Assembly: GCA_031417555.1 (NCBI GenBank)
Contig: JANOVV010000028.1
Span: forward strand, 77,984-141,983
From: Bacteroidota bacterium
GTDB taxonomy: Bacteria > Bacteroidota > Bacteroidia > AKYH767-A > 2013-40CM-41-45
Length of the DNA stretch: 64,000 nucleotides
Direction of reading: 5' to 3'
Under the pieces are notes generated by a model, which made no database searches, was not told where the DNA came from, and saw only the letters and a program-made list of their open reading frames with translations. This document shows, piece by piece, positions 2,969 through 45,697 of the stretch. Both the position numbers and the translations under genes were made by a program. The first letter of the stretch is position 1. The number at the start of each line of letters is the position of its first letter.

Positions 2969-3382
2969 AGAATTGTTTAATTAAATTGTTAAATTATTGA
3001 GATATTTTATTTGTTTATAATGAAGCCAAATTTTAAATCCACTTTCTTTACTAATAACCCTAAATATTAATTTTTAGATAAGCTATACTTGAAACTTTAG
3101 ATTGCAAAGATGATTAAGAGTCAATATTTGTGAGTTACATAATATTGGTATTATGTTATATAATTTACATTAATTAAGTTTAAATGTAGTTTCTGTTCAA
3201 TTATAATAATTGTATGGATGATTTTTTCTTATCTGGTTGTATAATTCGATTGACATATATACTTACATGTCCTTTCAGAGTGTGAATTATGAAACATAAA
3301 AGGGAAATTGTGTAATTGAAATTTTGCCGAATACCCTCACATTTGTACAGTAATGATTCTGTTACAAATAATCAATTTAATA

Positions 3383-15876: not shown

Positions 15877-16812
15877 ATGATAGACTCAAAATATATAATA
15901 GATACGACTTTGTTGCGGAAGGCAGAAGCTTTAAGCAAGCAAATTGGCAATACGCCTGTGCATCAGTTTCGGCATTGGAAAAATAGAAATATCAGGGTAT
16001 TGGCTAAGATGGAGTGGAAGCAATTATCGGGTAGTGTAAAGGCCAGAGCAGCGTATTCCATAATTTTAAGTGCCATTCGAGAAGGGAGATTAACACAAGG
16101 CAAGCATTTGTTAGATGCTACAAGCGGAAATACAGGTATTGCCTACGCTGTAATCTGTAAAAAATTAAACCTTAGAATTACCTTATGCCTACCGGAAAAT
16201 GCTTCACAAGAAAGGAAAGACATACTTAATGAGCTGGGAGTAGATATCGTTTTCACATCACCCTTTGAAGGAACAGATGGCGCTCAGGAAACTGCACTGG
16301 AATTATTCAATCAAAATCAGTCAAAGTATTTTTATGCAGATCAATACAAAAATCAACAAAATTGGAAAGCGCATTATTATACTACTGCACCTGAAATTTT
16401 AATGTCTGTGCCCGGTATTACCCATTTTGTTGCCGGACTTGGAACTACAGGAACATTTACAGGAACAGGAAGAAGACTCAAAGATTCAAATCAATCAATA
16501 AAACTCATTTCTCTACAACCCGATTATCCATTGCATGGCATGGAGGGTTGGAAACATTTAGAAACAGCTGTCGTTCCTGCTATTTATGATGCCGGATTAG
16601 CAGATGAAACGGAATTAATCAGTACCGAAGAAGCCTATTTAACTATTCGTACTATTTTTAAACAAGATGGTATTTTATTAAGTCCCTCTTCAGCAGCAAA
16701 TCTTGCCGGTGCTTTTCGTATTGCAGAAAAATCCGAAAATAATATAGTGGTAACTATTTTACCTGATAATGCAGATAAATATAAAGAAGTAATTAAATTT
16801 CTGAATTTATGA
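15877..16812 (+). CDS. cysM: PLP-dependent cysteine synthase family protein (CysM-like sulfhydrylase, presumably using the carrier thiocarboxylate as sulfur donor)
   Basis: Fold-type II PLP enzyme motifs (...KMEWKQLSGSVKARAA...; ...TSGNTGIAYA...; ...GTTGTF.GTG...). Forms an operon with the JAMM, MoaD-like and E1-like genes. Confidence 0.7.
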   Translation: MIDSKYIIDTTLLRKAEALSKQIGNTPVHQFRHWKNRNIRVLAKMEWKQLSGSVKARAAYSIILSAIREGRLTQGKHLLDATSGNTGIAYAVICKKLNLRITLCLPENASQERKDILNELGVDIVFTSPFEGTDGAQETALELFNQNQSKYFYADQYKNQQNWKAHYYTTAPEILMSVPGITHFVAGLGTTGTFTGTGRRLKDSNQSIKLISLQPDYPLHGMEGWKHLETAVVPAIYDAGLADETELISTEEAYLTIRTIFKQDGILLSPSSAANLAGAFRIAEKSENNIVVTILPDNADKYKEVIKFLNL

Positions 16813-17243
16813 TACACATAGAAGATGAAGCTTTAGAAGAAATGTTTGAAGATGCTTTACATGGCTTCCCATTTGAATGTTGCGGATTTTTATTCGGTGT
16901 TGCGGAAAATGATAATCGTTCGATCAAATTAATAAAGCGGGTAACCAATATTAGTAAAGAAGATCAGAGGAGGAGATTTTCAATCAGTTCAACCGATTAT
17001 ATTCTGGCTGAAAATTATGCCGAGGAAAACAATCTTTCATTACTAGGCATTTACCATTCACATCCAAATTATCCTGCTATTCCTTCCGAAACAGATCGAT
17101 TGTCTGCCCAGCCCTATTTCTCATATGTAATTATATCAATTTTAAATAAAAAGATTTCACATGTTCGGTCGTGGAGGTTAAATGATCAAAATCAATTCGA
17201 CGAAGAAATAATCAGACAAAGCATTTCATCAACAAAAAAATAA
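16809..17243 (+). CDS. JAMM/MPN+ (Mov34) family metalloprotease (Mec+/QbsD-like)
   Basis: Motifs E...HSHPNYPAIPSETD (HxHx7Sx2D). Overlaps cysM by 4 nt (ATGA). Confidence 0.75.
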   Translation: MIHIEDEALEEMFEDALHGFPFECCGFLFGVAENDNRSIKLIKRVTNISKEDQRRRFSISSTDYILAENYAEENNLSLLGIYHSHPNYPAIPSETDRLSAQPYFSYVIISILNKKISHVRSWRLNDQNQFDEEIIRQSISSTKK

Positions 17244-17252
17244 ATTATAAAA

Positions 17253-17534
17253 ATGGCAACTATTATTATCCCAACACCTCTACGAAAATTTACCAATAAC
17301 AGTAGTCGTCTTCAATTGAAGGCTAATTCCATTCAAGAAGCGGTAAGCGAACTTACTCTCAATTTTCCCGACCTGAAAAAGCATTTGCTTGATGAAAATG
17401 GAAAACTGAGAAGTTATATAAACGTTTTTGTTGGTAATGAAGATATCCGTAATCTTCAACAAGAGGAAACGGTGGTTCAACACGATTCTGTTATAAGTAT
17501 AATCCCTGCGATTGCAGGAGGTTTATTTATCTAA
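17253..17534 (+). CDS. cysO: MoaD/ThiS/CysO-family sulfur-carrier protein with a C-terminal extension (…AGG-LFI)
   Basis: 93-aa beta-grasp-sized protein ending ...IIPAIAGGLFI. The Gly-Gly sits 3 residues before the C-terminus. Confidence 0.65.
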   Translation: MATIIIPTPLRKFTNNSSRLQLKANSIQEAVSELTLNFPDLKKHLLDENGKLRSYINVFVGNEDIRNLQQEETVVQHDSVISIIPAIAGGLFI

Positions 17535-17556
17535 AATATTTTTAAAATTAAAAACT

Positions 17557-18720
17557 ATGAGTAATCAGAATATTCAATTTTCAAAAGATGAATTAGCCCG
17601 TTACAATCGACATATTATTATTCCTGATTTTGGAATTGAAGCACAGAGAAAATTGAAAGAGGCAAAGGTTTTAGTTATTGGCTCTGGTGGACTAGGCAGT
17701 CCGCTGCTACTATATCTTGCAGCTGCCGGTGTGGGTACACTTGGTATTGTTGATTTTGATGTTGTAGATGATAGCAATCTTCAACGTCAGGTATTGTTTG
17801 GTGTAGAAGATGTTGGGAAACCTAAAACAGAAGCGGCAAAGAAGCGCTTGCAATCTTTGAATCCATTTATAAAAATTAATACATATAACACTCGTATTAC
17901 CTCCGCTAATATTTTAGAAATTCTAAATGAGTATGATTTAGTAGCCGACGGTACGGATAATTTTCCGACGCGTTATTTAGTAAATGATGCAGCTGTGCTA
18001 TTGGGAAAGCCAAACGTGTATGCTTCAATCTTTCAGTTTGAAGGGCAGGTTTCTGTTTTTAACTACAAAGATGCAAATGGAAAATTAGGACCGAACTATC
18101 GCGACTTGTATCCATTGCCGCCACCTCCGGGATTAGTTCCCAATTGTGCTGAAGCAGGAGTTTTAGGCGTTTTGCCGGGTATCATTGGAAGTTTGCAAGG
18201 GCTTGAAGTTATTAAAGTAATCACAGGAATAGGGGAAACATTGAGCGGACGGTTTTTCACCTTTGATGCGCTCACTTTTGAAACAAGGACTTTTAATATA
18301 AACAGGAACCCTTCTAATCCTTTAAACGGAGAAAATCCGACAATTAAAACACTGATAGATTATGAAGCATTTTGCGGATTAAAAGGAGAAATAGAAAAAC
18401 CCCTGAAAGAAATTTCAGTGAATGAACTCTACGAATGGCAGGTGAGGGGCGATGATTATCAGTTGATCGATGTTCGTGAGCCTCATGAATTTGAAATTGC
18501 CAATATCGGAGGCGAACTATTTCCTTTGGCATCAATAGCAGCTGTTGCAGATAAAATTTCTCGTGAAAAGAAAGTTGTCATTCATTGCAAAATGGGTGGA
18601 AGAAGTGCCAAAGCTATTAGGCAATTACAGGATGAATTTGGTTTTGATAATTTGTACAATCTAAAAGGTGGAATAATTAAATGGATAGATGATATACAAC
18701 CTGAATTAAAAAAGTATTAA
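17557..18720 (+). CDS. moeZ: MoeZ/MoeB-type E1-like adenylyltransferase with a C-terminal rhodanese domain (activates the sulfur carrier by thiocarboxylation)
   Basis: ThiF nucleotide-binding GSGGLGS motif, a CxxC-less E1 core, and a C-terminal rhodanese ...HCKMGGRSAKA... with active Cys. Start chosen at the internal Met 17557 to avoid overlapping cysO. Confidence 0.75.
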   Translation: MSNQNIQFSKDELARYNRHIIIPDFGIEAQRKLKEAKVLVIGSGGLGSPLLLYLAAAGVGTLGIVDFDVVDDSNLQRQVLFGVEDVGKPKTEAAKKRLQSLNPFIKINTYNTRITSANILEILNEYDLVADGTDNFPTRYLVNDAAVLLGKPNVYASIFQFEGQVSVFNYKDANGKLGPNYRDLYPLPPPPGLVPNCAEAGVLGVLPGIIGSLQGLEVIKVITGIGETLSGRFFTFDALTFETRTFNINRNPSNPLNGENPTIKTLIDYEAFCGLKGEIEKPLKEISVNELYEWQVRGDDYQLIDVREPHEFEIANIGGELFPLASIAAVADKISREKKVVIHCKMGGRSAKAIRQLQDEFGFDNLYNLKGGIIKWIDDIQPELKKY

Positions 18721-18754
18721 AATATATTATTTCAATCGCATATATATAAAACTG

Positions 18755-19336
18755 ATGGAAATTTTTACTGATATAATACAAATACTAAAACAGCCATGGC
18801 CCTGGTATGTAGCTGGACCTATTATTGGTATTTGTGTGCCGCTTCTTTTATTAGCGGGTAACAAATCGTTAGGAATATCATCATCTTTAAGAGAAATTTG
18901 TGCTGCAATTATTCCTGGTAAAGTCGCTTTCTTAAAATTTAACTGGAAAGCTCAAAAGTGGAATCTTGTATTTATTTTAGGATTGGTTGTCAGCGGATTT
19001 GTTGGAGGCGTATTATTGAAAAATGATGAGCCTGTAAATATTGCAGCATCAACGAAAGCGATGCTTATTGAATATGGCATAACCGATCAAAGTGGCATTA
19101 TGCCTACATCGGTTTTCAATTTTGAATCATTGTTTAATGTTAGTGGGTTTATTCTTATCGTGATCGGAGGTTTCCTAGTTGGATTCGGAACCAGATGGGC
19201 TGGAGGGTGTACTTCCGGTCACGGTATTTTTGGATTGGCTACATTTCAAATACCATCACTCATTGCTACAATTACTTTTTTTGCTTTTGGCATTCTTACC
19301 AGCTGGTTTTTATTACCTGTCATTCTTAAGTTGTAA
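18755..19336 (+). CDS. YeeE/YedE-family sulfur-compound (thiosulfate) transporter, first half
   Basis: ...GTRWAGGCTSGHGIFG... motif and 4-5 TM helices. Confidence 0.65.
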   Translation: MEIFTDIIQILKQPWPWYVAGPIIGICVPLLLLAGNKSLGISSSLREICAAIIPGKVAFLKFNWKAQKWNLVFILGLVVSGFVGGVLLKNDEPVNIAASTKAMLIEYGITDQSGIMPTSVFNFESLFNVSGFILIVIGGFLVGFGTRWAGGCTSGHGIFGLATFQIPSLIATITFFAFGILTSWFLLPVILKL

Positions 19337-19357
19337 TACATCTAAAAAATATTTTCA

Positions 19358-19762
19358 ATGATCAGATATTTCTTTATTGGCTTATTATTTGGTCTGGCAT
19401 TAATTAAGGGAGAAGCAATTTCCTGGTATCGTATGCAAGAGATGTTTCATTTTCAGGGATTTCAGATTTTCGGTTTTTTCTTTACTGCTGTACCGACAGC
19501 TGCATTGTTACTTTTCCTGATCAAAAAATTTAATGTTAAGACAACAGGTAAAGAGGAATTGAAACCGAAGAAAAAATATTTTAACAAAGGAACGGTGTAT
19601 GGATCCGCACTTTTTGGGATCGGCTGGGGATTGACAGGTGCTTGTCCGGGACCCATATATGTTCAAATAGGAAGCGGATATTTTATTTCAATAGTCTTAT
19701 TGCTAAGTGCTCTGGCCGGAACCTGGGTATATGCTTTTTTCCGAGAGAAGCTGCCGCATTAA
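19358..19762 (+). CDS. YeeE/YedE-family transporter, second half
   Basis: ...GWGLTGACPGP... motif. Confidence 0.65.
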   Translation: MIRYFFIGLLFGLALIKGEAISWYRMQEMFHFQGFQIFGFFFTAVPTAALLLFLIKKFNVKTTGKEELKPKKKYFNKGTVYGSALFGIGWGLTGACPGPIYVQIGSGYFISIVLLLSALAGTWVYAFFREKLPH

Positions 19763-20345: not shown

Positions 20346-23300
20346 ATGCAAAAAATCACTACTCAACTTTTGTTTTATTGTTGTGAAAAAAGATTAACTC
20401 GAACAATTCCTGTAATCTTACTCCTCATTAATTTTGCAATTAATGTACCGGAATCATTTGGTCAAAGCCAATCGATTAGTACACCTGGTGTATCAATCGG
20501 AGGTAGTTCTACTACCGGCTCAGTATCGGCCGGAATTCCAAATTGTGTTCCACCAATATGTACAATTTCAGGAAGTACTTCAATTTGTCCTGGAACGGCA
20601 ACCACATTATGTGCGCCAGTAGGCCTTGCAGCTTATTCGTGGAGCACCGGTTCTACAGCTCAGTGTATTTCCGTTACAACACCCGGCACTTACATTGTAA
20701 CTATTACAGCTGTAGGTGGGTGTACGAGTACATGTAACATTACTGTAACTACAGCAACAGCACCAATATCAGGTAGCGGTTCTATTTGCAGTGGTGGTTC
20801 TACGCAATTATGTTCTGTGGCAGGTGCAAGTTCATATTCCTGGAGCACAGGAGCTACGACACAATGTATTACGGTAACAACAGCCGGTACTTATTCAGTC
20901 ACTACATGTATTAACGGTTGTTATATCACAAGCAGTAAAACAGTAACAGTTGGTTCTGTTTCTTGCTCAATCACTGGTAATAGTACAATTTGCTCGGGTG
21001 GATCCACTTCTCTATGTGCACCCTCCGGACTCTCTTCATATTCCTGGAGTACAGGAGCAACAACAAAATGTATTACTGTAAGTTCAGCTGGTACATATAC
21101 AGTAACTGTGTCTAACGGTGGATGTACAAGTAGTTGTAGTAAGACAGTAACAGTTCGACCAGCTTTAAATTGTACAATTACCGGAGCATCTTCTTTTTGT
21201 CAGGGGGGCTCTACTCAGCTTTGTTTGCCTACGGGTTATCAATCTTATTCATGGAATACAGGTGCAACTACACGTTGCATTACAGTAACATCCGCAGGAA
21301 CATATTATGGAAACGTTAATGATGGTACATGTAATAAAACTTGCAGCAAGGCTGTAACCGTTACATCTGTCAATTGTTCGATTACGGGAAGCAGTTCTAT
21401 TTGTCCGGGTACAACAACACAATTATGCGGACCGGCTGGACAATCATCTTATTCATGGAGCACAGGTTCAACATCACAATGTATAACAGTTGGTTCAAGT
21501 GGTACATATACATTAACAGTCACCAATGGAGGTTGTACTAGTAGTTGTTCTAAAACAGTTACTGTAGGTGCAATAAGTTGCAGTATTACTGGAAGCAGTA
21601 CAATTTGTGCCGGAGGCTCAAATCAATTATGTGCACCTGATGGAATGGCAACTTATTCGTGGAGTACCGGAGCAACAACACAATGTATTATTGTAAACAA
21701 TTCAGGTAATTATTCTGTTACCATCACCAATGGCAGTGGTTGCAGCAGTTCGTGTAGTAAATCAGTTTCTCTTAATAATACTTTAAGTTGTAATATAACA
21801 GGTACAACAGCAATTTGTCCGGATGGTACGACACAACTTTGTGCACCAGCAGGAATGGCAACTTATTCATGGAGTACAGGAGCAACTACACAATGTATAT
21901 TTGTAAGCTCTGCATCAACATATACTGTAACAGTTACTGATGGAAGTGGATGCAACAGCACTTGTTCAAAATCGGTAACAATAATTAATACAGATGATGG
22001 CAATGCATGTACTATAGATGCTTGTAATCAGCAAACGGGCGGCGTAACACATACTGCAGTAAATACAGATGATGGTAATGCCTGCACAGTTGATGCCTGC
22101 AATATTCAAACCGGAGTAATAACTCATACTTATGCAAGCATTGATGATGGTAATCCGTGTACCATTGATGCTTGTAATTCATTAACGGGTGGTGTTACGC
22201 ATACAGCTGTTAATACAGATGATGGCAATGCTTGTACAATCGATGCTTGTAATATTCAGACGGGAGTAATAACTCATACAGCAGTAAATACAGATGATGG
22301 CAATCCATGTACCGTAGATGCTTGTAATGTACAAACAGGAGGAATTACTCATACAGCGGTAAATACTGATGATGGCAATCAATGTACTATTGATGCATGT
22401 AATTCGTTAACGGGAGGTATTACACATACAGCAGTAAATGTTGATGATGCAAATGCATGTACAATTGATGTATGTAATTCTATAACAGGCATTACTCATA
22501 CAGCTGTTTCAACTAACGATAATAATGCTTGTACATACGATGGTTGTGATCCTGTAACAGGTGTATTTCACAATACAATCAACTCAGATGATAACAATCC
22601 GTGTACAATAGACAATTGTAATTCATTAACAGGAATTACTCATACAGCAGTCAACCCTGACGATGGCAATGTTTGTACGACGGATGGTTGTAATACGGCG
22701 ACAGGAGTATTTCATATTTCGGTTTCTGTAAATGATAACAACCTGTGTACAATTGACGGTTGTGATCCAATTACCGGCATATTCCACATATTAAAAAATA
22801 CGGATGATGGAAATGCTTGTACAATAGATGCCTGTAATAGTGTTTCAGGAGCGATTACGCATGTGCCTGTAAATATAAACGACAACAATGCTTGTACCAC
22901 TGATGCTTGCGACCCGATAACCGGAATCATTACATATGTATTGGTTTCTACTGAAGACGGCAATGCTTGTACAATAGATGGTTGTAATTCGATAACGGGT
23001 GTAACTCATGTTCCGGTTTCTACCAATGATAATAATGCCTGTACGTTTGACGGTTGTGATCCTGTGCTTGGAGTATTTCATAATACAATAAGTTCTGACG
23101 ATAACAATCCATGTACTTTAGATAATTGTAATCCGGTAACAGGTATTTTCCATACGGCAGTTGATCCAAACGATGGTAATGTTTGTACAACAGATGGTTG
23201 TAATACTGCAACAGGAGTATACCATATTTCGGTTTCAGTTAATGATAATAATCTATGTACAATAGATGGTTGTGATCCTGTTAACGGAATATTCCATATC

Positions 23301-26300
23301 TTAAAAAATACTGATGATGGAAATGCATGTACAATTGATGCTTGTAATTCTCTTACAGGTGCAATTACACATGTTCCGGTAGTAATAAATGATAACAATG
23401 CTTGTACGACAGATGCTTGTGATCCTGCTACCGGAGTAGTCACACATATTCAGCTTTTAACAGATGATGGCAATGCCTGTACAATTGATGATTGTAATAT
23501 TTTTACAGGGGTTACACATGTACCGGTATCCACTAACGACAACAATGCTTGCACGTTTGATGGTTGTGATCCGGTTTTAGGTGTATTCCACAATACGATT
23601 AGTTCAGATGATAATAATCCTTGTACAATAGATAATTGCAATGTTTCAACAGGTGTATTCCACACTCCAGTTAATCCGGATGATGCTAATGTTTGTACTA
23701 CGGATGGTTGTAATTCAATTACAGGAGTATTCCATATTTCACTTTTGACCAATGATAATAACTACTGTACGATTGATGGCTGTGATCCGATAACAGGAAT
23801 TTTTCATACTCCGGTAAATGCGGATGACGGCAACTCTTGTACGGAAGATAATTGTATTCCGGCAAATGGTTCGATTACTCATGTTCCATTCAATGTAAAC
23901 GATAACAATCCGTGTACAATTGATGCATGTAATCCTGCTTTTGGAAACATTACACATGTTCCGGTAATTACTGATGATGGCAATCCTTGTACAATTGATG
24001 CTTGTAATTCTTTCTCAGGAGTAGTTACGCATTTAGCGGTTATTATAAACGATAACAATGCTTGTACAATGGACGCTTGTGATCCATTTAACGGGAATAT
24101 TACACACATGGCAGTATTTATAGATGACGCTAATGCTTGTACCAACGATTTTTGTAATTCTATTACAGGAGGTATAACTCATCCGGCAATTATAATTAAC
24201 GATAACAACGCTTGTACTGTTGATGCCTGTGATCCTGCAACCGGAAATATTACACATGCCCAAATAATTACCGACGACGGAAATAAATGTACCATTGATG
24301 CATGTAATTCCTCTACCGGTGCAATTACGCATGTTGTTATTAATCCAAATGATAATAATCCTTGTACAGTAGATGCTTGTGATCCTATTACCGGAAATAT
24401 TACAAATATTCCCGGAATTACGGATGATGGTAATGCTTGTACAATAGATGCATGTAATCCGGCAACAGGTGCAGTTACACATGTTGTAAAAGATGTTGAC
24501 GACAACAATGCATGTACGGTTGATGCTTGTAATCCTTCTACCGGAAATATTACTCATACACTTGTAATTACCGACGACAGCAATGCGTGTACAGTTGATG
24601 CTTGTAATTCTGCAACCGGCGCAATCAGCCATGTTGTTGTTGATCCAAACGATAATAACGCTTGTACGGTTGATGCATGTAATCCTTCAACGGGAAATAT
24701 TACACATATACAAACAATTACCGATGATGGTAATGCCTGTACAATTGATGCTTGTAATACTGAAACCGGTGCTGTTACACATGTTGTTAAAAATGTAAAT
24801 GATAATAATGCTTGCACGGTCGATGCTTGTAACCCTTCCGACGGAAATATAACTCATACACTTATAATTACAGATGATGGCAATAAATGCACAGTGGATG
24901 CTTGTAATTCTGCAACGGGTGCAGTTACCCATGTAGTTAAAGATGTCGACGATAATAATGCATGTACTTTAGATGCTTGTGATCCTTCCGACGGAAACAT
25001 TACACATACACTTGGAATTACTGATGATGGCAATGCTTGTACTGTTGATGCCTGTAACTCTGCCACCGGAGCAGTAACCCATGTAGTAATTGATGTTGAT
25101 GATAGTAACGCATGTACAGAGGATGCCTGTGATCCTTCCAACGGAAATATTACACACACACTTGGAATTACTGATGATGGTAATGCTTGTACTGTTGATG
25201 CTTGTAATACGGCCACAGGAGCCGTAACGCACATGGTAATAGGTGTAGATGATAAGAATGAATGTACGGTAGATGCTTGTGATCCTGCAAATGGAAATAT
25301 TTCGCACAATGCAGTCATTACCGATGATGGTAATGCTTGTACAATCGATGCTTGTAATTCAGCCACAGGAGCAATAACACATGTGGTTATAAATGCAAGT
25401 GATGACAATGCTTGTACAATAGATGCTTGTGATCCTGCTTCAGGTAATATCACTCATATTACATTTAATACAAATGATGGTAATGCGTGTACAATCGATG
25501 GTTGTAACCCATTAACAGGAGAATTTCATATTCCGGTATCAACGGAAGATAACAACCTTTGTACTTTTGATGGTTGTGATCCTGTCCTTGGTGTTTTCCA
25601 TAATGCAGTTAACTCAAATGATAATAACTTATGTACAGCAGATGGTTGTAATTCGCTTACAGGAATTTTCCATACTACAATAGATCCTAATGATAACAAT
25701 GTTTGTACAACTGATGGTTGTAACACTTTAACCGGTGTTTTCCATATTTCAGCCTTAACAAACGACAATAACGCATGTACAATCGATGGTTGTGATCCGA
25801 TAACTGGTATTTTCCATACTCTTAAAAATGCTGATGATGGTAATGCTTGTACAATTGATGCTTGTAATACAGCAACAGGAGCAATAACACACGTTGTTGT
25901 TGTTACAAACGATAACAATGCTTGTACAGTTGATGCTTGCGATCCGGCTACAGGATTTATTACTCATAATGCAATTAGTATTGATGATGGTAATGCTTGT
26001 ACAGCTGATGCATGTAATACAACTACAGGTGCTATTACACATGTTGTTGCAAATACTAACGATAACAATGCATGTACAATAGATGCTTGTGATCCTGCTA
26101 CCGGATTCATAACTCATGCATTTATTAATACCGATGATGGCAATGCTTGTACAACTGATGCTTGTAATTCAGTTACCGGTTCAATTACACACGTTCCCGT
26201 TAATATCAGTGATAACAATGTATGTACTACCGATGCTTGTGATCCATTAACTGGATTTATCTTACATACAACTTTAAATCCCGATGACGGCAATGTTTGT

Positions 26301-29300
26301 ACTATTGATGCTTGTAATTCAATTACCGGAATAACACATGTTCAGGTTTCTTCAAACGATAATAACGCATGTACCTTTGATGGATGTGATCCGATACTGG
26401 GCATATTCCACAATACCATCAGCTCGGATGATAACAACCCTTGTACAATCGATAATTGTAATTCAATAACAGGAATATCTCATACTACTGTTAATCCTGA
26501 TGATGGCAATGTTTGTACAATAGATGCTTGTAACACAATAACAGGAGTAACTCATACTTCAGTCGCAACTAACGATAACAATGCATGTACTATCGACGGT
26601 TGTGATCCTGTTACCGGAATATTCCATATAGCTAAAAATACCGATGATGGTAATGCTTGTACCGTTGATGCATGTAATACTTTAACAGGTGCTATTACAC
26701 ACATTGTTGTAAATACAAATGACAACAATGCTTGTACCGTTGATGCTTGTGACCCTTCTACAGGATTTATTACTCACACAGCTATCAGTATTAATGATGG
26801 TAACGCTTGTACTGTTGATGCTTGTAATTCATCTACTGGTGATATTACTCATGTTCTTGTAAATGTAAACGACGGCAATGCATGTACTCTGGATGCTTGT
26901 GATCCTGTTACTGGCTTCATAACTCATAATGCTATCAGTATAAATGACGGCAATGCTTGTACTGTTGATGCTTGTAATTCAGCAAACGGCGACATTACGC
27001 ATGTGCTTGTAAATGTAAATGATGGTAATGCTTGTACAGCCGATATTTGTGATCCGGCCACAGGGTTTATTACTCATCCGTTTATAAATACTGATGATGG
27101 TAATGCATGTACAGTTGATGCCTGTAATTCAACTACTGGAGCTATCACACATGTTGTTGTAAATACAAACGACAACAACGCATGTACAATAGATGCTTGT
27201 GATCCTGCTACAGGATTCATAACTCATACAGTTATTAATACAGATGATGGTAATGCTTGTACTATTGATGCTTGTAATTCAGCTACAGGTTCAATTACAC
27301 ATGTCCTTGTTAATATTAACGATAACAATGCATGTACAACTGATGCCTGTGATCCAGCGACAGGATTTATCACTCATACATTTTTAAATCCTGATGATGG
27401 TAATGTTTGTACCATTGATGCTTGTAATTCAATCACCGGAATAACGCATGTTCAGGTTTCTTCAAACGATAACAATGTTTGTACATTTGATGGTTGTGAC
27501 CCAATAACAGGTGTGTTCCACAATACAATCAGCTCTGATGATAACAACCCTTGTACAATCGATAATTGTAATTCAATAACAGGAATATCACATACTTCAG
27601 TTAACCCTGACGATGGCAATGTTTGTACAATAGATGCTTGTAACTCAATAACAGGAGTAACTCATACTTCAGTTGCAACTAATGATAACAATGCATGTAC
27701 GATCGACGGTTGTGATCCTGTTACCGGTGTTTTCCATATCGCTAAAAACATAGACGATGGTAATGCATGTACAGCCGATGCTTGTAATTCAGCCACTGGT
27801 GCGATCACTCATGTTTTTGTTAATACAAACGACAATAACGCATGTACTGTCGATGCTTGTGATCCTGTTACAGGAATAATTACCCATGTTGTCATAAGTA
27901 TTGATGATAATAATGCATGTACAGCGGATGCTTGTAATTCAATCACAGGATTGGTTACTCATACCAATGTCATTACTGATGATGGCAACCCTTGTACGAA
28001 TGATGTTTGTAATCCTTTTACAGGCATAATTACTCATACAGCTACTATTACAGATGATGGTAATCCTTGTACAATTGATGCTTGTAACTCAGTTACAGGA
28101 GGAGTTACCCATACAGCTGTAAATACGGATGATGGTAATGCTTGTACTACAGATGCTTGTAATCCTGCAACTGGCGCAATTACTCATACAGCAGTTAATA
28201 TCGACGACAGCAACCCTTGTACAATTGATGCATGTAATTCTGTAACAGGAGGCATAACTCATACAGCTGTAAATACGGATGATGGAAATGCTTGTACAAC
28301 GGATGCTTGTAATCCTTCTACAGGTGCTATCACTCACATAGCAGTAGTTACTGATGATGGTAATGCTTGTACGGTTGATGCTTGTAATTCAAGTACTGGT
28401 GTAATCACTCATACAGCTTTGAATACGGATGATGGAAATGCTTGTACAACGGATGCTTGTAATCCTTTAACAGGTGCTATCACTCATACAGCAGTTGTTA
28501 TAGATGATAATAATGCTTGTACAGTTGATGCCTGTAATTCAGTAACAGGTGTAATAACTCATATTGCAAATCAACCAACCACTTGTACAATAACTGGTAA
28601 TAGTGATATATGTTTTTCAGGAAATACAACTTTATCTGTCTCGAATGTGGGATCATATTTATGGAGTACAGGTCAAACTACTTCATCAATAACTGTTACT
28701 TCTGCAGGTTTATACTCTGTAATTGTTACTAGCAACAACGGTTGCAGCAGTACTTGTTCACTTACAGTAACTTCTCATAATTGTGGAATTACTCTTAGAA
28801 AAACGCCGGATAAGTGTGAATTTCCTGATGGCGTTCCAACTTTAGTAAATTTCGAATATGTTGTAAAGAATAATTTGACAAGTGGTTTCAGTGCGTCAGG
28901 TATCTTAACAGATGATAATGGTACTCCGTTAAATAAATTGGATGATGTATTAGTTTGTAATTGGGGACCAATTATTCCCGGAGACAGTACAATTTGTTAT
29001 AAAGCATTTACAATATCAAGTACCTATACAAATATTGCAATAGCTTCCGGAACTTCCGGAGGAGCATCGGTTTCAGCAATTGCTACTGCTACTGTAAAGG
29101 GCGTGAATTGCAATTGTAATCTTAACTACCCCGACAACTCAAATTTACCTCGCTCTGCTGTAATTTTTAACGAAAGTGAAATTTTGAGAACCTCAGAACC
29201 AGGTCCAACATCTTGTGCTACTTTAGGATCAAAGATTAAACTTTGGTATAATGATGAACATGCTATGTTACTTGGTATTAAATCGGTTAGCGTAAAAACT

Positions 29301-30806
29301 TCTGGAGGTACAATTACAACAAACTACAATGTTTCTCCATACTCCGGTTCCCCTGGTTGTATTAGTAATCCTTTAATGGGAGATACAATAACATCAGGAG
29401 ATCAGGCGGCAAACGATTTAGCAGACGGTGGCGGTCGTCCGATAAGACCATTAATTTTCTTAACCGATCTTACTGTTAATGGTGCAAATAGCAGAATTGG
29501 CGACTGGCAACAAGGCGGAATTGGTATTTCTCCGACCGGTATATGTGGTTCCTGGAAAAGTGCAACTAAGCTAATTGATAAAACTAAAAACCCGCCTCTT
29601 GTAACTATTACAACTGATCCGAATCCTGCTAAAAATAATTGGAATCTTGGAAGTGGATCTGATACACCTGCTGAAGGATTTGCAAGCTTGAAAAATGAAG
29701 GTTATGGAACCGAAGTTTCATGGGATATCAATAGCCTGGGATTAATTCCGGGTCATGATTATCGTGTAGTGTTTATGGTTCACGATGGTGATCAAAATAA
29801 AACCGGGGGAGATGTAGGTGAGACTTGTACTACAATTCATATTCCTGATGGATTGTGTAATACATTTAACACACCTCCGCCACCACCTCCGCCATCTGAA
29901 AAAGTTTGTTACAAAGGAACTGCAAATACCTATGTAAGAGCAAGCCAATCATGGACAATTAATACAACTACGAATCAAGCAACCATTCGAACTACATTTT
30001 CAAAGAATTTTGTAGATAACACGTATGGTACTAATGCTATAAGCTGGCCTTCAGGACATACTTTTAGTAATCTGGTTGGTTCTGATCATGTTCAAATGGC
30101 ATTGTATGATGGTAACAACGTTAAGAAAATGGAATTCAAAGTAGATTATATTACTTCAAATAGTTCTGTTGCTTCAGGTTACAAATGTCTTGGAGTGGTA
30201 GGCGGTGAGGGTAGCATGTTATTAGGAAATGCATCTGATGTTGTTAGTGCAACAACTTCAATTGACCAAAACTTAAATACTTTTGGTTATGTATTAACTA
30301 CTAATTCTCCTGCGACAAACAGCAGCTATACTCCAAATGCAACGTATCCTAACTGGATTTATGATGTATGGTACGAAGTAACTGTTAATCTATCTGCATT
30401 TGGACCGGCCGGTTTCGGAAGACCACTTATAACGGCCATTCATGCAAGCCCAAGTAAGACAGGTAACAATACAGAGGTTATGGTAGATACAATTTGTGTA
30501 AATCCTCGACTTGCTTCCACTTCAGAAATGATTAACGAAAATAATTTAATGGTAAATGCTTACCCGAATCCATTTAGCACAAGTGCTATTATAGAATTCC
30601 ATACAAATGATAAAGCATCTCAGATTGTTCTGGAAGTTTATACACTCACAGGTGAAATAGTTACAACTCTGTTCAATGGTATTGCTGAGCCAGGTATTAA
30701 ATACAAATCGGAATTTAAAGGTGAGAATCTTCCAAATGGAATTTACATCTACCGATTGGAAAACGAAGATGGCATTGTCAATGGTAAATTGATATTAATG
30801 AAATAA
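20346..30806 (+). CDS. giant (3486 aa) T9SS type-A sorted cell-surface protein: ten or more N-terminal ~64-aa Cys-rich Ig-like repeats, about 90 tandem 24-25-aa two-Cys repeats, a unique C-terminal region, and a T9SS C-terminal domain
   Basis: N-terminal repeats C.ITG.S.IC.GG.T.LCAP.G...YSWSTGATTQCITV.S.GTYTVTV.NG.GC.S.CSK.VTV. Core repeats DDGNACTxDACNxxTGxxTHxxVNT. PPPPPPP linker. C-terminus ...YPNPFSTSAIIEF...NGIYIYRLENEDGIVNGKLILMK (Por_Secre_tail-like). Confidence 0.85.
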   Translation: MQKITTQLLFYCCEKRLTRTIPVILLLINFAINVPESFGQSQSISTPGVSIGGSSTTGSVSAGIPNCVPPICTISGSTSICPGTATTLCAPVGLAAYSWSTGSTAQCISVTTPGTYIVTITAVGGCTSTCNITVTTATAPISGSGSICSGGSTQLCSVAGASSYSWSTGATTQCITVTTAGTYSVTTCINGCYITSSKTVTVGSVSCSITGNSTICSGGSTSLCAPSGLSSYSWSTGATTKCITVSSAGTYTVTVSNGGCTSSCSKTVTVRPALNCTITGASSFCQGGSTQLCLPTGYQSYSWNTGATTRCITVTSAGTYYGNVNDGTCNKTCSKAVTVTSVNCSITGSSSICPGTTTQLCGPAGQSSYSWSTGSTSQCITVGSSGTYTLTVTNGGCTSSCSKTVTVGAISCSITGSSTICAGGSNQLCAPDGMATYSWSTGATTQCIIVNNSGNYSVTITNGSGCSSSCSKSVSLNNTLSCNITGTTAICPDGTTQLCAPAGMATYSWSTGATTQCIFVSSASTYTVTVTDGSGCNSTCSKSVTIINTDDGNACTIDACNQQTGGVTHTAVNTDDGNACTVDACNIQTGVITHTYASIDDGNPCTIDACNSLTGGVTHTAVNTDDGNACTIDACNIQTGVITHTAVNTDDGNPCTVDACNVQTGGITHTAVNTDDGNQCTIDACNSLTGGITHTAVNVDDANACTIDVCNSITGITHTAVSTNDNNACTYDGCDPVTGVFHNTINSDDNNPCTIDNCNSLTGITHTAVNPDDGNVCTTDGCNTATGVFHISVSVNDNNLCTIDGCDPITGIFHILKNTDDGNACTIDACNSVSGAITHVPVNINDNNACTTDACDPITGIITYVLVSTEDGNACTIDGCNSITGVTHVPVSTNDNNACTFDGCDPVLGVFHNTISSDDNNPCTLDNCNPVTGIFHTAVDPNDGNVCTTDGCNTATGVYHISVSVNDNNLCTIDGCDPVNGIFHILKNTDDGNACTIDACNSLTGAITHVPVVINDNNACTTDACDPATGVVTHIQLLTDDGNACTIDDCNIFTGVTHVPVSTNDNNACTFDGCDPVLGVFHNTISSDDNNPCTIDNCNVSTGVFHTPVNPDDANVCTTDGCNSITGVFHISLLTNDNNYCTIDGCDPITGIFHTPVNADDGNSCTEDNCIPANGSITHVPFNVNDNNPCTIDACNPAFGNITHVPVITDDGNPCTIDACNSFSGVVTHLAVIINDNNACTMDACDPFNGNITHMAVFIDDANACTNDFCNSITGGITHPAIIINDNNACTVDACDPATGNITHAQIITDDGNKCTIDACNSSTGAITHVVINPNDNNPCTVDACDPITGNITNIPGITDDGNACTIDACNPATGAVTHVVKDVDDNNACTVDACNPSTGNITHTLVITDDSNACTVDACNSATGAISHVVVDPNDNNACTVDACNPSTGNITHIQTITDDGNACTIDACNTETGAVTHVVKNVNDNNACTVDACNPSDGNITHTLIITDDGNKCTVDACNSATGAVTHVVKDVDDNNACTLDACDPSDGNITHTLGITDDGNACTVDACNSATGAVTHVVIDVDDSNACTEDACDPSNGNITHTLGITDDGNACTVDACNTATGAVTHMVIGVDDKNECTVDACDPANGNISHNAVITDDGNACTIDACNSATGAITHVVINASDDNACTIDACDPASGNITHITFNTNDGNACTIDGCNPLTGEFHIPVSTEDNNLCTFDGCDPVLGVFHNAVNSNDNNLCTADGCNSLTGIFHTTIDPNDNNVCTTDGCNTLTGVFHISALTNDNNACTIDGCDPITGIFHTLKNADDGNACTIDACNTATGAITHVVVVTNDNNACTVDACDPATGFITHNAISIDDGNACTADACNTTTGAITHVVANTNDNNACTIDACDPATGFITHAFINTDDGNACTTDACNSVTGSITHVPVNISDNNVCTTDACDPLTGFILHTTLNPDDGNVCTIDACNSITGITHVQVSSNDNNACTFDGCDPILGIFHNTISSDDNNPCTIDNCNSITGISHTTVNPDDGNVCTIDACNTITGVTHTSVATNDNNACTIDGCDPVTGIFHIAKNTDDGNACTVDACNTLTGAITHIVVNTNDNNACTVDACDPSTGFITHTAISINDGNACTVDACNSSTGDITHVLVNVNDGNACTLDACDPVTGFITHNAISINDGNACTVDACNSANGDITHVLVNVNDGNACTADICDPATGFITHPFINTDDGNACTVDACNSTTGAITHVVVNTNDNNACTIDACDPATGFITHTVINTDDGNACTIDACNSATGSITHVLVNINDNNACTTDACDPATGFITHTFLNPDDGNVCTIDACNSITGITHVQVSSNDNNVCTFDGCDPITGVFHNTISSDDNNPCTIDNCNSITGISHTSVNPDDGNVCTIDACNSITGVTHTSVATNDNNACTIDGCDPVTGVFHIAKNIDDGNACTADACNSATGAITHVFVNTNDNNACTVDACDPVTGIITHVVISIDDNNACTADACNSITGLVTHTNVITDDGNPCTNDVCNPFTGIITHTATITDDGNPCTIDACNSVTGGVTHTAVNTDDGNACTTDACNPATGAITHTAVNIDDSNPCTIDACNSVTGGITHTAVNTDDGNACTTDACNPSTGAITHIAVVTDDGNACTVDACNSSTGVITHTALNTDDGNACTTDACNPLTGAITHTAVVIDDNNACTVDACNSVTGVITHIANQPTTCTITGNSDICFSGNTTLSVSNVGSYLWSTGQTTSSITVTSAGLYSVIVTSNNGCSSTCSLTVTSHNCGITLRKTPDKCEFPDGVPTLVNFEYVVKNNLTSGFSASGILTDDNGTPLNKLDDVLVCNWGPIIPGDSTICYKAFTISSTYTNIAIASGTSGGASVSAIATATVKGVNCNCNLNYPDNSNLPRSAVIFNESEILRTSEPGPTSCATLGSKIKLWYNDEHAMLLGIKSVSVKTSGGTITTNYNVSPYSGSPGCISNPLMGDTITSGDQAANDLADGGGRPIRPLIFLTDLTVNGANSRIGDWQQGGIGISPTGICGSWKSATKLIDKTKNPPLVTITTDPNPAKNNWNLGSGSDTPAEGFASLKNEGYGTEVSWDINSLGLIPGHDYRVVFMVHDGDQNKTGGDVGETCTTIHIPDGLCNTFNTPPPPPPPSEKVCYKGTANTYVRASQSWTINTTTNQATIRTTFSKNFVDNTYGTNAISWPSGHTFSNLVGSDHVQMALYDGNNVKKMEFKVDYITSNSSVASGYKCLGVVGGEGSMLLGNASDVVSATTSIDQNLNTFGYVLTTNSPATNSSYTPNATYPNWIYDVWYEVTVNLSAFGPAGFGRPLITAIHASPSKTGNNTEVMVDTICVNPRLASTSEMINENNLMVNAYPNPFSTSAIIEFHTNDKASQIVLEVYTLTGEIVTTLFNGIAEPGIKYKSEFKGENLPNGIYIYRLENEDGIVNGKLILMK
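21990..28570 (+). repeat. ~6.6 kb of in-frame tandem 72-75-nt repeats (about 90 copies) encoding the DDGNxCTxDxC(N/D)xxTGxxTH unit
   Basis: Direct reading. Repeated ...gatgatggtaatgcttgtac...gatgcttgtaat... units. Neighbouring copies are often more than 85% identical. Confidence 0.9.
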
Positions 30807-30822
30807 CAACCATGAAACCCTG

Positions 30823-30857
30823 AAAAAATGCCTCCAATTTCGGAGGCATTTTTTTTG
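30823..30857 (+). terminator. rho-independent terminator of the giant gene
   Basis: aatgcctcc-aatttc-ggaggcatt followed by a T8 run. Confidence 0.8.
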
Positions 30858-32137
30858 TGGTATCTAGAATATGGCTGCGAGATTAAAACCGAAAAGTTCT
30901 CTAACAAGATGACAATTTCAAATGCTTATAGAGGGATGAGAATGTAATGCTAAAAGATGCTATGCATTTTTCAGAATGAAACTTTTAGCTTTACTTTTTT
31001 CCCTTCTTTTTTTAAACAACGGTCATCTCTTTAGAGAGCTTTTCGGTCAATTGTTAATGTCTTTTTAGCTTAATAATTTTTCAACTATTTTTGTTCAAAT
31101 AGTCTTTTTGTATTGTGTAGAATATTACTGCGAGATTAAAACCGAAAAGTTCTCTGGCGAGATGACAATTTCGTATGCTTATAGGGGGATGAGAATGTAA
31201 TGCTAAAAGATGCTATGCATTTTTCAGAATGAAACTTTTAGCTTTACCTTTATCCCCTTCTTTTTTTAAACAACGGTCATCTCTTTAGAGAACTTTTCGG
31301 TTAATTCGAAATGTCTCTTTAGCTTAATAATTTTGCAACTATTTTTGTTCACAATACCTTTTTTGTATTGTGTAGAATATTACTGCGAAATTAAAAACCG
31401 AAAGGTTTTCTGGCGAGATGACAATTTTGTAGACTTATTGGGGGATGAGAATGTAATGCTAAAAGATGCTATGCATTATTCAGAATGAAACTTTTAGCTT
31501 TACTTTTTTCCCTTCTTTTTTTAAACAACGGTCATCTCTTTAGAGAGCTTTTCGGTCAATTGGTAATGTCTTTTTAGCTTAATAATTTTTCAACTGTTTT
31601 TGTTCAAATAGTCTTTTTGTATTGTGTAGAATATTACTGCGAGATTAAAAACTTAAAGGTTCTCTGGCGAGCAATGTCATTAAGTTAAGCTACGGGTCAT
31701 GTTTTTTTTGCCACAAAAACACAAAAACACTAAAAAAAACAAAAATTAAATACCAACAATTTTGTGTCTTAGTGTTTTTGTGGCATTAGATCCTTAACTT
31801 AATGACATTGCTCTGGCGAGATGACAATTTCGTATGCTTATAGGGGGATGTGAGTGTAATGCTAAAAGATGCTAAGCATGTTTCAGAATGAAACTTTTAG
31901 CTTTACCTATTGCCCTCTTCTTTTTCTAAACATGGGTCATCTCTTTAGAGAGCTTTTCGGTTAATTAGAAATGTCTCTTAAGCTTAATAATTTTTCAACT
32001 ATTTTTGTCCACATTGCCTTTTTTGTATTGTATAGAATATTACTGCGAGATTAAAACCGAAAAGTTCTCTGGCGAGATGACAATTTTGTAGACTTATTGG
32101 GGGATGAGAATGTAATGCTAAAAGATGCTATGCATTA
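30858..32137. repeat. intergenic tandem array of five ~254-bp non-coding structured repeat units (period 253-257 bp, ~90% identity); the last unit is truncated and unit 4 is interrupted by a MITE
   Basis: Unit starts (tgcgagattaaaacc...) at 30876, 31129, 31384, 31638 and 32044. Each unit has a long-range inverted repeat ccgaaaagttctct..gagatgac /~140 nt/ gtcatctc..agagagcttttcgg and an inner hairpin gctaaaag...cttttagc. No ORF of 60 aa or more on either strand. Confidence 0.85.
31672..31810. mobile_element. 139-bp miniature inverted-repeat element (MITE) inserted into repeat unit 4
   Basis: Perfect 18-19-bp terminal inverted repeats (caatgtcattaagttaag ... cttaacttaatgacattg). Internal 13-bp hairpin (gccacaaaaacac/gtgtttttgtggc). 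Flanked by a 10-bp direct duplication ctctggcgag (31662-31671 and 31811-31820) that is present only once in uninterrupted units. Confidence 0.8.
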
Positions 32138-32154
32138 TACCCGATACTCGACTC

Positions 32155-32796
32155 TCACTTAAACCTCCCTTTAAACTCTCTTTTAAATTCCAGAAAATCC
32201 GGTATTGAAACATTTTTAACATAGGAATTGTCGGGATGATTTAAAATGTATTCCTGGTGGTAATCTTCTGCCGGATAAAATTTTGAAAAAGATTTTACCT
32301 CTGTAACAATTTTATCTGAATATTTTTTAGATTCTGATAAGCGTTTAATTTCAGATTCGATAATTTCTTTTTCTTTTTCATTGCGATAGAAAGCAACAGA
32401 ACGGTATTGTGTACCACGGTCGTTGCCTTGTCTGTTAAGTGTGGTAGGATCCATACTCGTAAAAAATGCAGAGACTAAGGTCGCATAAGTGATTTTTGAA
32501 GGATCGTAATATACCTGTACAACTTCAGCATGTCCCGTATTTCCATTGCATACATTTTCATAATTCGGATTAGGATCTGTTCCTCCTGAATAACCCGATA
32601 CGGCATCTCTTACACCTTCTAGGCTTTGAAAAACAATTTCCGAATGCCAGAAACACCCTTCACCAAAAGTTGCTATTGCTTCCTTAGAACCGGGATTGCC
32701 CTTGATGCCTGCTGGAATAGTTTCATTCTTAGTATGAGTTTGTGCACACGAATAAAAAGTGGCAAATGAAATTAATACTATCAATATACTTTTCAT
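32155..32796 (-). CDS. msrA: peptide-methionine (S)-S-oxide reductase MsrA with a signal peptide (periplasmic)
   Basis: GCFWHSE active-site motif (GCFW..E) and ...GYSGG.... N-terminal signal MKSILIVLISFATFYSCAQ. Confidence 0.85.
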   Translation of the reverse strand: MKSILIVLISFATFYSCAQTHTKNETIPAGIKGNPGSKEAIATFGEGCFWHSEIVFQSLEGVRDAVSGYSGGTDPNPNYENVCNGNTGHAEVVQVYYDPSKITYATLVSAFFTSMDPTTLNRQGNDRGTQYRSVAFYRNEKEKEIIESEIKRLSESKKYSDKIVTEVKSFSKFYPAEDYHQEYILNHPDNSYVKNVSIPDFLEFKREFKGRFK

Positions 32797-32821
32797 AATC
32801 TTAATTTTTTAAAATTGGTTT

Positions 32822-33358
32822 TTATTTAGAACTAACCGGAGGTTTTCCTCCTTCGGGAACAAAAATAAGTGCATCCGAATTCATGCAATATCTTTTACCG
32901 GTAGGAGCCGGGCCATCATCGAAAACATGACCGAGGTGTGAGCCGCTTTTACTGTCTACAACTTCTATACGTTCCATGCCTATACTCCCGTCTTTTATCA
33001 AACGAACTGCATCAGGGTTTATAGGTGAATAAAAACTTGGCCAACCTGTACCCGAATTAAATTTAGCTTCTGAACTGAATAATGGCTGCAAAGTAGCCGC
33101 TGAATAGTAGGTTCCTTTTTCGTAAAAGTGGTCGTATTTTCCTGTGCCCGGTCTTTCCGTTCCTTTATTCCTTAGTATATAATATTGTTTGTCTGTAAGT
33201 CTTGCTTTCCATTCAGCATCACTCATTTGCATCGGATAAATGGTTGTTTTTTCAGCAAGAGGAGGATCCGGATATTTTGCATTTTTAGATTGTGAAAATG
33301 AACAACTGTTATTTAGAAAAATAAATGCTGTTAAGAGAATGGATGTCAGTGTTTTCAT
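32822..33358 (-). CDS. msrB: peptide-methionine (R)-S-oxide reductase MsrB with a signal peptide
   Basis: ...GTGWPSF... and HLGHVFDDGP...RYCMNS motifs (catalytic Cys in RYCxN). Signal peptide. Confidence 0.85.
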   Translation of the reverse strand: MKTLTSILLTAFIFLNNSCSFSQSKNAKYPDPPLAEKTTIYPMQMSDAEWKARLTDKQYYILRNKGTERPGTGKYDHFYEKGTYYSAATLQPLFSSEAKFNSGTGWPSFYSPINPDAVRLIKDGSIGMERIEVVDSKSGSHLGHVFDDGPAPTGKRYCMNSDALIFVPEGGKPPVSSK

Positions 33359-33524: not shown

Positions 33525-34268
33525 AAACCAATACATAGCAAAAACAACCCTTTTTTAAAAAAATCCAGGATTCAGTTTTCCCTAAATTTTCATTATCGTT
33601 TGAATTAATTTTAATTTTCAGTCATTCAAAAAGAATTTTTCAAAAACTGTTTGAGTAGATCGTTTTTCGACAATTCATATAAAAGTAAATGTTAGAAAAT
33701 TATATTATTTGAAAGTATTGTGAAAGGATATGGCTACAAAAACTTTTCTTTTTACTTATTAATTGGAATTTGAAACTGTAATAAATTTAAAAAAATGCAA
33801 ATCACTTTTTTGCCTTTTTAAATCTCTGAAGATGTATTAAAGTGTAAGAAATGTAAAGCTTAGTGATATTTTCTGTGAGAATGGAAATATTTTATCGAAT
33901 AAAAACTGCTTTTAGTTTTCACGACAGCCTTGTTTAGTGTTAAATGGCTTAAATAGACTTCCAATTCTATTTTTCTACATGGTTCTATATTAGAAATTAC
34001 GTTTGTAATAAATGGCTTTTAATCGAGTTTTTAGGTTGCATCATTTGTCAGATACTGGCGTACATATCGATGAATTAGTGTTTTTTGAATGGACATACAT
34101 CCAAAATAAGGGACCATCTAAATAGCATTAATCGAAAGATAATAATAGAAAGTACTCTTCGCCGAAAACGAGAGAGTTATAAAGATTAAGGACATTATGC
34201 CCGAATCATTACATACATCAGTCAGACATTTATGTCAGGACATTAAAAGAAAGGCCTTCGTCGTCAAG

Positions 34269-44687: not shown

Positions 44688-44732
44688 TTAAATTAATTTT
44701 TGAATAATACAGTTGAAATAAACAATAAGAAA

Positions 44733-45680: not shown

Positions 45681-45697
45681 ATTAATCCAACAATAAT

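Follow-up and report, generated by a model that had tools for sequence, protein, structure and literature searches.

The stretch analysed here, hereafter the window, comprises 64,000 nucleotides from an uncultured Bacteroidota bacterium (GenBank assembly GCA_031417555.1, contig JANOVV010000028.1, positions 77,984 to 141,983 of the forward strand), with zero N bases and a guanine-cytosine content of ~33%. We focused on one gene within it, whose giant product carries a probable signal peptide, a long tandem array of two-cysteine repeats matching the Pfam family Dicty_CTDC (PF00526), and a predicted C-terminal sorting domain of the type IX secretion system (T9SS). The mature protein was computed at ~352 kDa with an isoelectric point (pI) of ~4. 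The gene and its parts are arranged as follows, with the basis of each assignment in brackets; pLDDT denotes the predicted local distance difference test score of AlphaFold2.

20346-30806, plus strand: complete gene for the 3486-residue protein (list of open reading frames, ORFs, and translation)
20346-20465, plus strand: probable signal peptide, residues 1 to ~40, with a K/R-rich start, the hydrophobic core IPVILLLINFAINV and SFG/Q (translation read directly)
20535-21992, plus strand: seven tandem modules of ~68 residues, rich in Cys, Thr and Ser (motif positions)
21993-28574, plus strand: array of 89 Dicty_CTDC (PF00526) units of the two-cysteine subtype, with a hairpin predicted for each unit (Pfam, Tandem Repeats Finder, motif anchoring, AlphaFold2)
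28575-28769, plus strand: an eighth cysteine module of the N-terminal type, 3′ of the array, with four cysteines instead of six (translation, motif positions)
28770-29111, plus strand: beta-sandwich domain without a Pfam match (AlphaFold2 strands, pLDDT 76-91)
29112-29858, plus strand: conserved module A (NYPDNSNLPRS..WYNDEHA..GDWQQGG..FMVHDGDQNKTGGDVGETC), residues ~2923-3171, ~250 residues (AlphaFold2, pLDDT 90-98)
29874-29894, plus strand: seven-proline linker between modules A and B (pLDDT below 50 there)
29901-30530, plus strand: conserved module B (SQSWTI..TFSKNFVDNTYG..WPSGH..IHASPSK) (sequence conservation, AlphaFold2)
30561-30794, plus strand: T9SS type-A C-terminal sorting domain (PF18962, TIGR04183)
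30821-30856, plus strand: terminator-like hairpin and then a T-run, directly past the stop codon (sequence read)

To delimit the repeat units, we anchored on the motif C-T-x-D-x-C and obtained 89 contiguous units, 58 of 25 residues and 31 of 24, covering residues 550-2743 (2194 residues, 62.9% of the protein). The array contains 178 cysteines, 87 histidines, 272 aspartates and 11 lysines, lacks arginine and tryptophan altogether, and has a pI of ~4. A previous reading of the DNA, made from the sequence only, had described about 90 tandem two-cysteine repeats of 24-25 residues with about 180 cysteines and about 90 histidines, occupying some two thirds of the protein, and these counts agree with it closely. 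Seven positions are invariant in 89 of 89 units (D2, N4, C6, T7, D9, C11 and G16), while H20 is present in 86 and T15 in 73. Positions 1 (D in 52, N in 33) and 3 (G in 43, N in 38) vary, and the supposedly invariant D-D-G-N of the sequence-only reading was accordingly amended to x-D-x-N. Within runs of 25-residue units, column 13 alternates between P and S and column 12 between D and N (N-S/T versus D-P), and Tandem Repeats Finder reported periods of 75, 150, 225 and 450 nt, with scores up to 1367 and matches of 61-80%; the alternation and the 150-nt period bear out the two-unit super-repeat that had been proposed. Furthermore, we identified a third subtype that the previous reading did not include, a block of five 24-residue units (GCDP..G[VI]FH) that recurs six times. 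With a Pfam E-value of 0 at 1720 bits, alongside these Tandem Repeats Finder scores, the array is far beyond chance. Minus-strand ORFs of 100-199 residues also lie inside the array, between 23078 and 26117, and are most simply viewed as a by-product of its repetitive codon content.

The match to PF00526 (InterPro IPR001673), described in Pfam as "Dictyostelium (slime mold) repeat", reached 1720.4 bits (cut-off 27) and was distributed over 89 stretches. By this profile match, the unit belongs to a catalogued family and is not a novel repeat. A word-indexed search recovered 450 homologous proteins, with Polyangiaceae, Acidobacteria, Methanothrix and candidate-phylum bacteria among the named sources, and phmmer, run exhaustively against 1.84 billion representatives, returned 5004 with E<=1e-3, of which 553 reached E<=1e-30. 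The four-cysteine form of the unit reads C-DDGN-x-C-T-x-D-x-C-DP-x-TG-C-x-H (C-x5-C-x4-C-x5-C), and the two-cysteine form is the same unit without its first and last cysteines, the central C-x4-C being kept in 89 of 89 window units. The window unit therefore has two cysteines fewer than the canonical one, not one fewer as had been suggested.

We next counted both forms among the homologs. The first homolog set comprised 384 four-cysteine, 330 two-cysteine and 11 mixed units (two-cysteine, 330 of 725), and the top 150 representatives comprised 2616, 760 and 54, respectively (760 of 3430). These counts indicate that the two-cysteine form is a common bacterial subtype inside Dicty_CTDC, and because it is common we file the window array there as a subtype, although its units depart from the four-cysteine pattern of the canonical unit. 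Since the units of the homologs are nearly all of one form or the other, the outer cysteine pair appears to be gained or lost together around an invariant central pair. In the related Bacteroidota metagenome-assembled genome (MAG) that supplied locus L016, two- and four-cysteine units are mixed within one array (10628-11437; mean 3.6 cysteines per unit), which could help show how the two subtypes interconvert. Among the top 150 representatives, the 89 units form the largest two-cysteine array, followed by arrays of 52 and 35; the sole listed protein with more units is P0241 (5357 residues), with 98 four-cysteine units.

A syntenic metagenome scaffold in ENA (ERZ28573536 scaffold_46, locus L001) encodes an ortholog of the giant protein. 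The nearest species genomes, uncultured Bacteroidota/Flavobacteriales MAGs, are only 64-69% identical. The C-terminal region of the L001 ortholog is 84% identical in the search alignment and 92% identical over 600 aligned codons. The order of 25- and 24-residue units is the same in both arrays, and a unit-level alignment revealed one-to-one orthology at mostly 84-100% identity. The only alignment gaps in L001 are unit pairs, five in all (window units 28-29, 33-34, 43-44, 84-85 and 87-88). The ratio of nonsynonymous to synonymous substitution rates (dN/dS) was 0.063 for array units 1-27 (dS 0.39), 0.109 for the N-terminal region and 0.106 for the C-terminal region. As judged from this pairwise comparison, the array is genuine coding sequence under strong purifying selection, its units keep their individual identity, and its length changes by whole 150-nt super-repeats. 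The expectation that repeat number varies thus holds over evolutionary time.

Regarding export, the C-terminal tail (residues 3406-3483 of 3486) scored 29.1 bits with TIGR04183 (cut-off 23) and 29.0 bits with PF18962/Por_Secre_tail (cut-off 27). These scores, both above the curated cut-offs, identify the protein by profile as a giant T9SS type-A cargo, as had been claimed. None of the core T9SS genes (porK/L/M/N, sov, porU/V) is in the window, which does contain a PorP/SprF gene (44700-45680) beside a cargo with a CHU_C tail. That cargo, the second giant gene of the window (3496 residues), carries ~20 Big_9/Cadherin_4/Cadherin_5 repeats, SprB repeats and a CHU_C (type-B) tail; 3′ of it lie the PorP/SprF gene and then an OmpA/TPR/PD40 gene (45698-47881). 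Judging by its domain content, the whole region (34197-47881) is apparently a cluster for a type-B T9SS cargo.

The array is flanked by distinct domains on both sides. The N-terminal modules share the motif C.ITG...C.G..T.LC.P.G..YSWSTGATT.CI.V..G.Y.V.V...GC.S.C and are probably immunoglobulin (Ig)/PKD-like beta-sandwiches, a reading for which Pfam offers sub-threshold hints only (K319L-like PKD, Big_3 and PKD; E 0.02-0.08). Neither module A nor module B matched any Pfam (2025 copy) or NCBIfam model. Module A recurs at 45-65% identity in at least six phyla, among them Chloroflexota, Verrucomicrobiota, Actinomycetota, Acidobacteriota and Bacteroidota, with the consensus WYNDEHA..GDWQxGG..FMVHDGDQNKxGGDxGExC and in many architectures, fused to TadG-like pilin heads, SdrD_B, HYR or cadherin-like arrays. 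Conservation this strong suggests that module A has a specific role, be it in binding or in catalysis.

Sequence searches of the PDB with a 270-residue fragment, the N-terminal region and the C-terminal region, and profile searches with two alignments, returned no structure other than T9SS tails; for the repeat, neither the single fragment nor a profile detected one. The sequence-only reading had stated that a clean hit to a well-characterised family of known structure would remove the novelty; the family proved to be catalogued, but sequence detects no solved structure of any member, in line with a 2021 survey that placed Dicty_CTDC among the repeat families without known structure (PMC8078820). 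We modelled eight units (residues 1460-1659) with AlphaFold2, using an alignment of in-register array windows plus 30 homologs. The model had a mean pLDDT of 90.9 and a predicted template modelling score (pTM) of 0.49; every unit contained two strands, one spanning positions 7-11 (T-x-D-x-C) and one spanning 18-22 (with H20), and helices were absent. Each 24- or 25-residue unit is thus predicted to fold as a beta-hairpin, which makes the extended, fibre-like fold envisaged by the sequence-only reading plausible. In this model, C6 and C11 occupy opposite ends of one five-residue strand, ~16 Å apart by standard geometry. An intra-unit C6-C11 disulfide was rejected on this ground, since the strand that separates the two cysteines is incompatible with a bond between them or with a metal ion shared by them.

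Among solved folds, Foldseek placed the model closest to the heavy chain of the Entamoeba Gal/GalNAc lectin (9gjc_H and 9gjg_H; E 1.4e-5, probability 0.99-1.0). The arm of this lectin consists of four-cysteine pseudo-domains of 20-35 residues, in which a disulfide within the domain joins the first and fourth cysteines, while the second and third link it to its neighbours and so rigidify the elongated arm (PMC12948311). By analogy, the simplest reading of the Dicty_CTDC unit is that C1 and C4, being gained or lost together, form one disulfide and that the central pair bonds between units. Three homologs allow the cysteines to be counted at the array ends: P0150 has nine four-cysteine units with exactly one extra cysteine immediately on either side of the array, and P0123 and P0144 (the latter a cluster whose named member is a Polyangiaceae protein) each have a five-cysteine first unit, several two-cysteine units, a four-cysteine last unit and a single conserved cysteine at the C-terminus of the protein ("NCP"). 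As far as these sequences go, only a chain model pairs all the cysteines of P0150, P0123 and P0144 locally. A "ladder" pairing (C3-C4, C2-C1′) was also considered and set aside: it fits pure four-cysteine arrays and leaves unpaired cysteines in mixed ones such as P0144. For the window array, we regard a continuous inter-unit disulfide chain, argued by this analogy, as evenly poised between right and wrong.

Collectively, we consider it reasonably likely that the protein is a T9SS-exported giant in which a stiff, acidic, disulfide-chained rod serves as the stalk of a surface protein. In the arrangement that we infer, with its disulfide pattern, rod length, role as stalk or adhesin and orientation on the cell, each C6 and C11 would pair with a cysteine of a neighbouring unit, so that the units would all be linked covalently, like those of the Entamoeba lectin arm. 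Such a chain would form a stiff rod of very roughly 100-200 nm with a strong negative charge, acting as a spacer. The C-terminal tail would guide the protein through export and probably to its attachment on the surface. In this orientation, modules A and B would be near the cell, with the seven Ig-like cysteine modules of the N-terminus held far out; the C-terminus is placed proximally by analogy with type-A cargos, which become attached to the surface after tail cleavage. The array would grow or shrink by recombination in two-unit (150 nt) steps.

Several observations weigh against this reading. With a pTM of only 0.49, the inter-unit geometry, and hence the stiffness and length of the rod, is uncertain. 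The Foldseek hits to the lectin have template modelling scores (TM-scores) of 0.18-0.24 and identities of 12-15%, and the template has four cysteines per unit. The chain itself is built on secondary structure, the lectin analogy and cysteine counting. Moreover, the flanks of the window protein hold even numbers of cysteines (42 N-terminal, 18 C-terminal), which under the chain model gives the C6 of the first unit and the C11 of the last no obvious partner. Foldseek against the PDB related the C-terminal model to generic tandem beta-sandwiches only (RbmA, transglutaminase barrels and integrin calf domains), all at a TM-score below 0.2, and because these matches are generic we assign no function to the C-terminal modules. 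The literature searched describes no function for Dicty_CTDC in bacteria. Finally, release rather than anchoring is the fate of many type-A T9SS cargos.

A bolder proposal, which we advance tentatively and consider doubtful, is that two-cysteine arrays constitute a distinct bacterial fibre that has dropped the intra-unit disulfide, with ~88 inter-unit disulfides and a rod of ~150 nm in this case, and that the dictyostelid repeats originated in bacteria and were acquired by horizontal transfer. Among amoebozoans, Dicty_CTDC was counted in dictyostelids and Physarum and not in Acanthamoeba (PMC4931340); a bacterial origin would fit this distribution together with the thousands of bacterial representatives.

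The main rival to an anchored stalk is that the protein is released, being secreted by the T9SS into a polysaccharide matrix or biofilm that it scaffolds, with the repeat surface binding the polymer. Many type-A cargos are indeed soluble, and the conserved face of the predicted hairpin (T7, D9 and H20) would offer 89 identical binding sites. The Dictyostelium Dicty_CTDC proteins EcmA and EcmB, found in the slime sheath and stalk tube, provide an analogy: in dictyostelids the repeat marks matrix proteins, including ecmA, ecmB, pdiA and psiA (PMC4931340; PMC9117722). Slime-mould spore-coat proteins, which integrate with the cellulose layer through disulfides, carry related C-x4-C motifs, a likeness drawn by motif and not by family test (PMC3068167). 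Set against these parallels, Pfam scans of the protein found no carbohydrate-binding module, self-association would be disfavoured, unless cations are present, by a net charge of roughly -270, and the distinct terminal domains are more in keeping with a stalk whose ends are functional than with a uniform matrix polymer. We therefore judge a released scaffold unlikely, although it competes better than the other alternatives.

It is also conceivable that the array is a metal-binding module whose Cys, His and Asp side chains, from a single unit or from adjacent ones, coordinate Zn2+ or another ion, with no disulfides at all. Every unit has two invariant cysteines, a near-invariant histidine and invariant aspartates, and Pfam reported a match to zf-TAZ (PF02135; 1.6e-52, 176 bits) spread over 18 weak stretches. 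The zf-TAZ domain is a helical zinc-binding domain, whereas the AlphaFold2 model is all-beta without helices, and the same match recurs on other Dicty_CTDC arrays; we therefore rejected it as an artefact of Cys/His periodicity. With C6 and C11 predicted to lie at opposite ends of a strand, they could not chelate the same ion, and the metal stabilisation offered by the sequence-only reading as an alternative to disulfides is hence unlikely for the cysteine pair of one unit. The cysteines of an exported protein are, in addition, expected to be oxidised. We hold a metal-binding array to be quite improbable.

Whether the length and order of the array could be an artefact of collapse, expansion or chimerism during assembly deserves the same scrutiny, since it consists of 6.6 kb of 72-75-nt repeats and the L001 scaffold has a 100-N gap inside its own array (8990-9089, corresponding to ~window units 60-71). 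The public gene call in L001 is a 796-residue fragment, and in short-read metagenome assemblies arrays of this kind are liable to fragmentation and under-annotation. The assembly risk raised by the sequence-only reading is thus borne out in the relative, while nothing in the window suggests collapse, which is unlikely there because the units have diverged at the DNA level and the longest exact repeat within the array is only 50-59 nt. The same repeat length, together with the 61-80% matches, shows that describing the units as similar enough for slipped-strand variation was an overstatement. Furthermore, the reading frame is open over 10.4 kb, the independent assembly of L001 reproduces the order of unit types and the one-to-one orthology on both sides of its gap, and synonymous divergence with strong purifying selection is as expected of a genuine gene. 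An assembly artefact is accordingly very improbable. Least credible of all is the assignment of the unit to the myxobacterial family myxo_disulf_rpt (TIGR02232), raised as a possibility by the sequence-only reading and favoured only by Polyangiaceae (myxobacterial) proteins with the same two-cysteine units, because an NCBIfam scan of the whole protein at E<=1 matched TIGR04183 alone, while Pfam gives Dicty_CTDC and those Polyangiaceae proteins carry the PF00526 annotation themselves.

In the surroundings of the gene, two further features were observed. Upstream of the giant gene, whose product has 240 cysteines, lies a sulfur-carrier cluster (15877-19762) encoding a PALP enzyme, a JAB protein, ThiS (annotated in L001), a ThiF-rhodanese protein and two sulfur-transport proteins, and downstream of it (32155-33358) lie msrA and msrB. 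The sulfur-related neighbours are the same in L001, and their position beside a cysteine-rich gene may be a coincidence. Between the giant gene and msrA, a non-coding tandem repeat of ~254 nt occupies 30865-32140: 3.2 copies at 91% identity (30865-31671) are followed by an inverted-repeat element (~31672-31815) and then by ~1.3 further copies. Folding of each ~254-nt unit gives a long hairpin (-80 kcal/mol, z = -8). This 1.3-kb block is missing in L001, where the spacer between the giant gene and msrA measures 134 nt; it matched nothing in Rfam, and the window and the fetched loci contain no other copy. An Rfam scan of the giant gene with its flanks likewise gave nothing credible. The block may be a miniature inverted-repeat transposable element (MITE)-like or structured-RNA element.

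What is notable here, besides unusually clean ortholog evidence, is the length of the array, the longest two-cysteine array among the top 150 representatives listed, and not the unit family. Dicty_CTDC is large (5004 representative clusters), yet it has no member structure detectable by sequence, and this gene offers a clean example for study, with 89 diverged and strictly conserved units and an ortholog that points to purifying selection and two-unit steps. If true, the disulfide chain would explain how very long Bacteroidota surface fibres can be built from 24-residue units and would provide the dictyostelid matrix proteins with a structural model. In annotation, zf-TAZ matches on Dicty_CTDC arrays should be treated as false positives, and short-read assemblies are prone to break inside these arrays.

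Compared with known systems, the window array resembles the PF00526 proteins EcmA and EcmB in its 24-residue period and its core D-x-N-x-C-T-x-D-x-C...G..H, and the proteins are alike in having long tandem arrays and in being secreted, by prediction in the case of the window protein; the canonical PF00526 unit has four cysteines, of which the window unit lacks the first and last, and the window protein differs further in its bacterial host, its predicted T9SS export and its 89 units. The avian eggshell-membrane protein CREMP and the C4C modules of slime-mould spore coats are tandem, disulfide-rich, extracellular and structural with a C-x4-C spacing; compared by motif only, they differ in having four cysteines per module and other intervening residues (PMC3068167). 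The Entamoeba lectin heavy chain, the best structural match, has tandem small beta-strand modules of 20-35 residues that form an elongated arm, an arrangement that the array may resemble; it differs in its four cysteines per module, its dozen or so modules and its eukaryotic membrane setting, and any likeness would be one of architecture rather than demonstrated homology. Giant repeat adhesins such as Marinomonas MpIBP, Salmonella SiiE and Flavobacterium SprB use dozens of tandem repeats to project their terminal domains, and the window protein resembles them as a very large, repeat-built protein whose surface location is predicted. Their extender units are Ig-like, ~100 residues long and Ca2+-stabilised, in contrast to the 24-residue predicted hairpins of the window, and export of such adhesins proceeds by type I secretion or, for SprB, with a T9SS type-B tail. 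Other T9SS cargos of the family, P0242-P0245, share with the window protein the two-cysteine subtype, Ig/PKD-like modules, Por_Secre_tail and the spurious zf-TAZ match, and differ in having 25-52 units and PKD_6 or HYR_4C domains in place of modules A and B.

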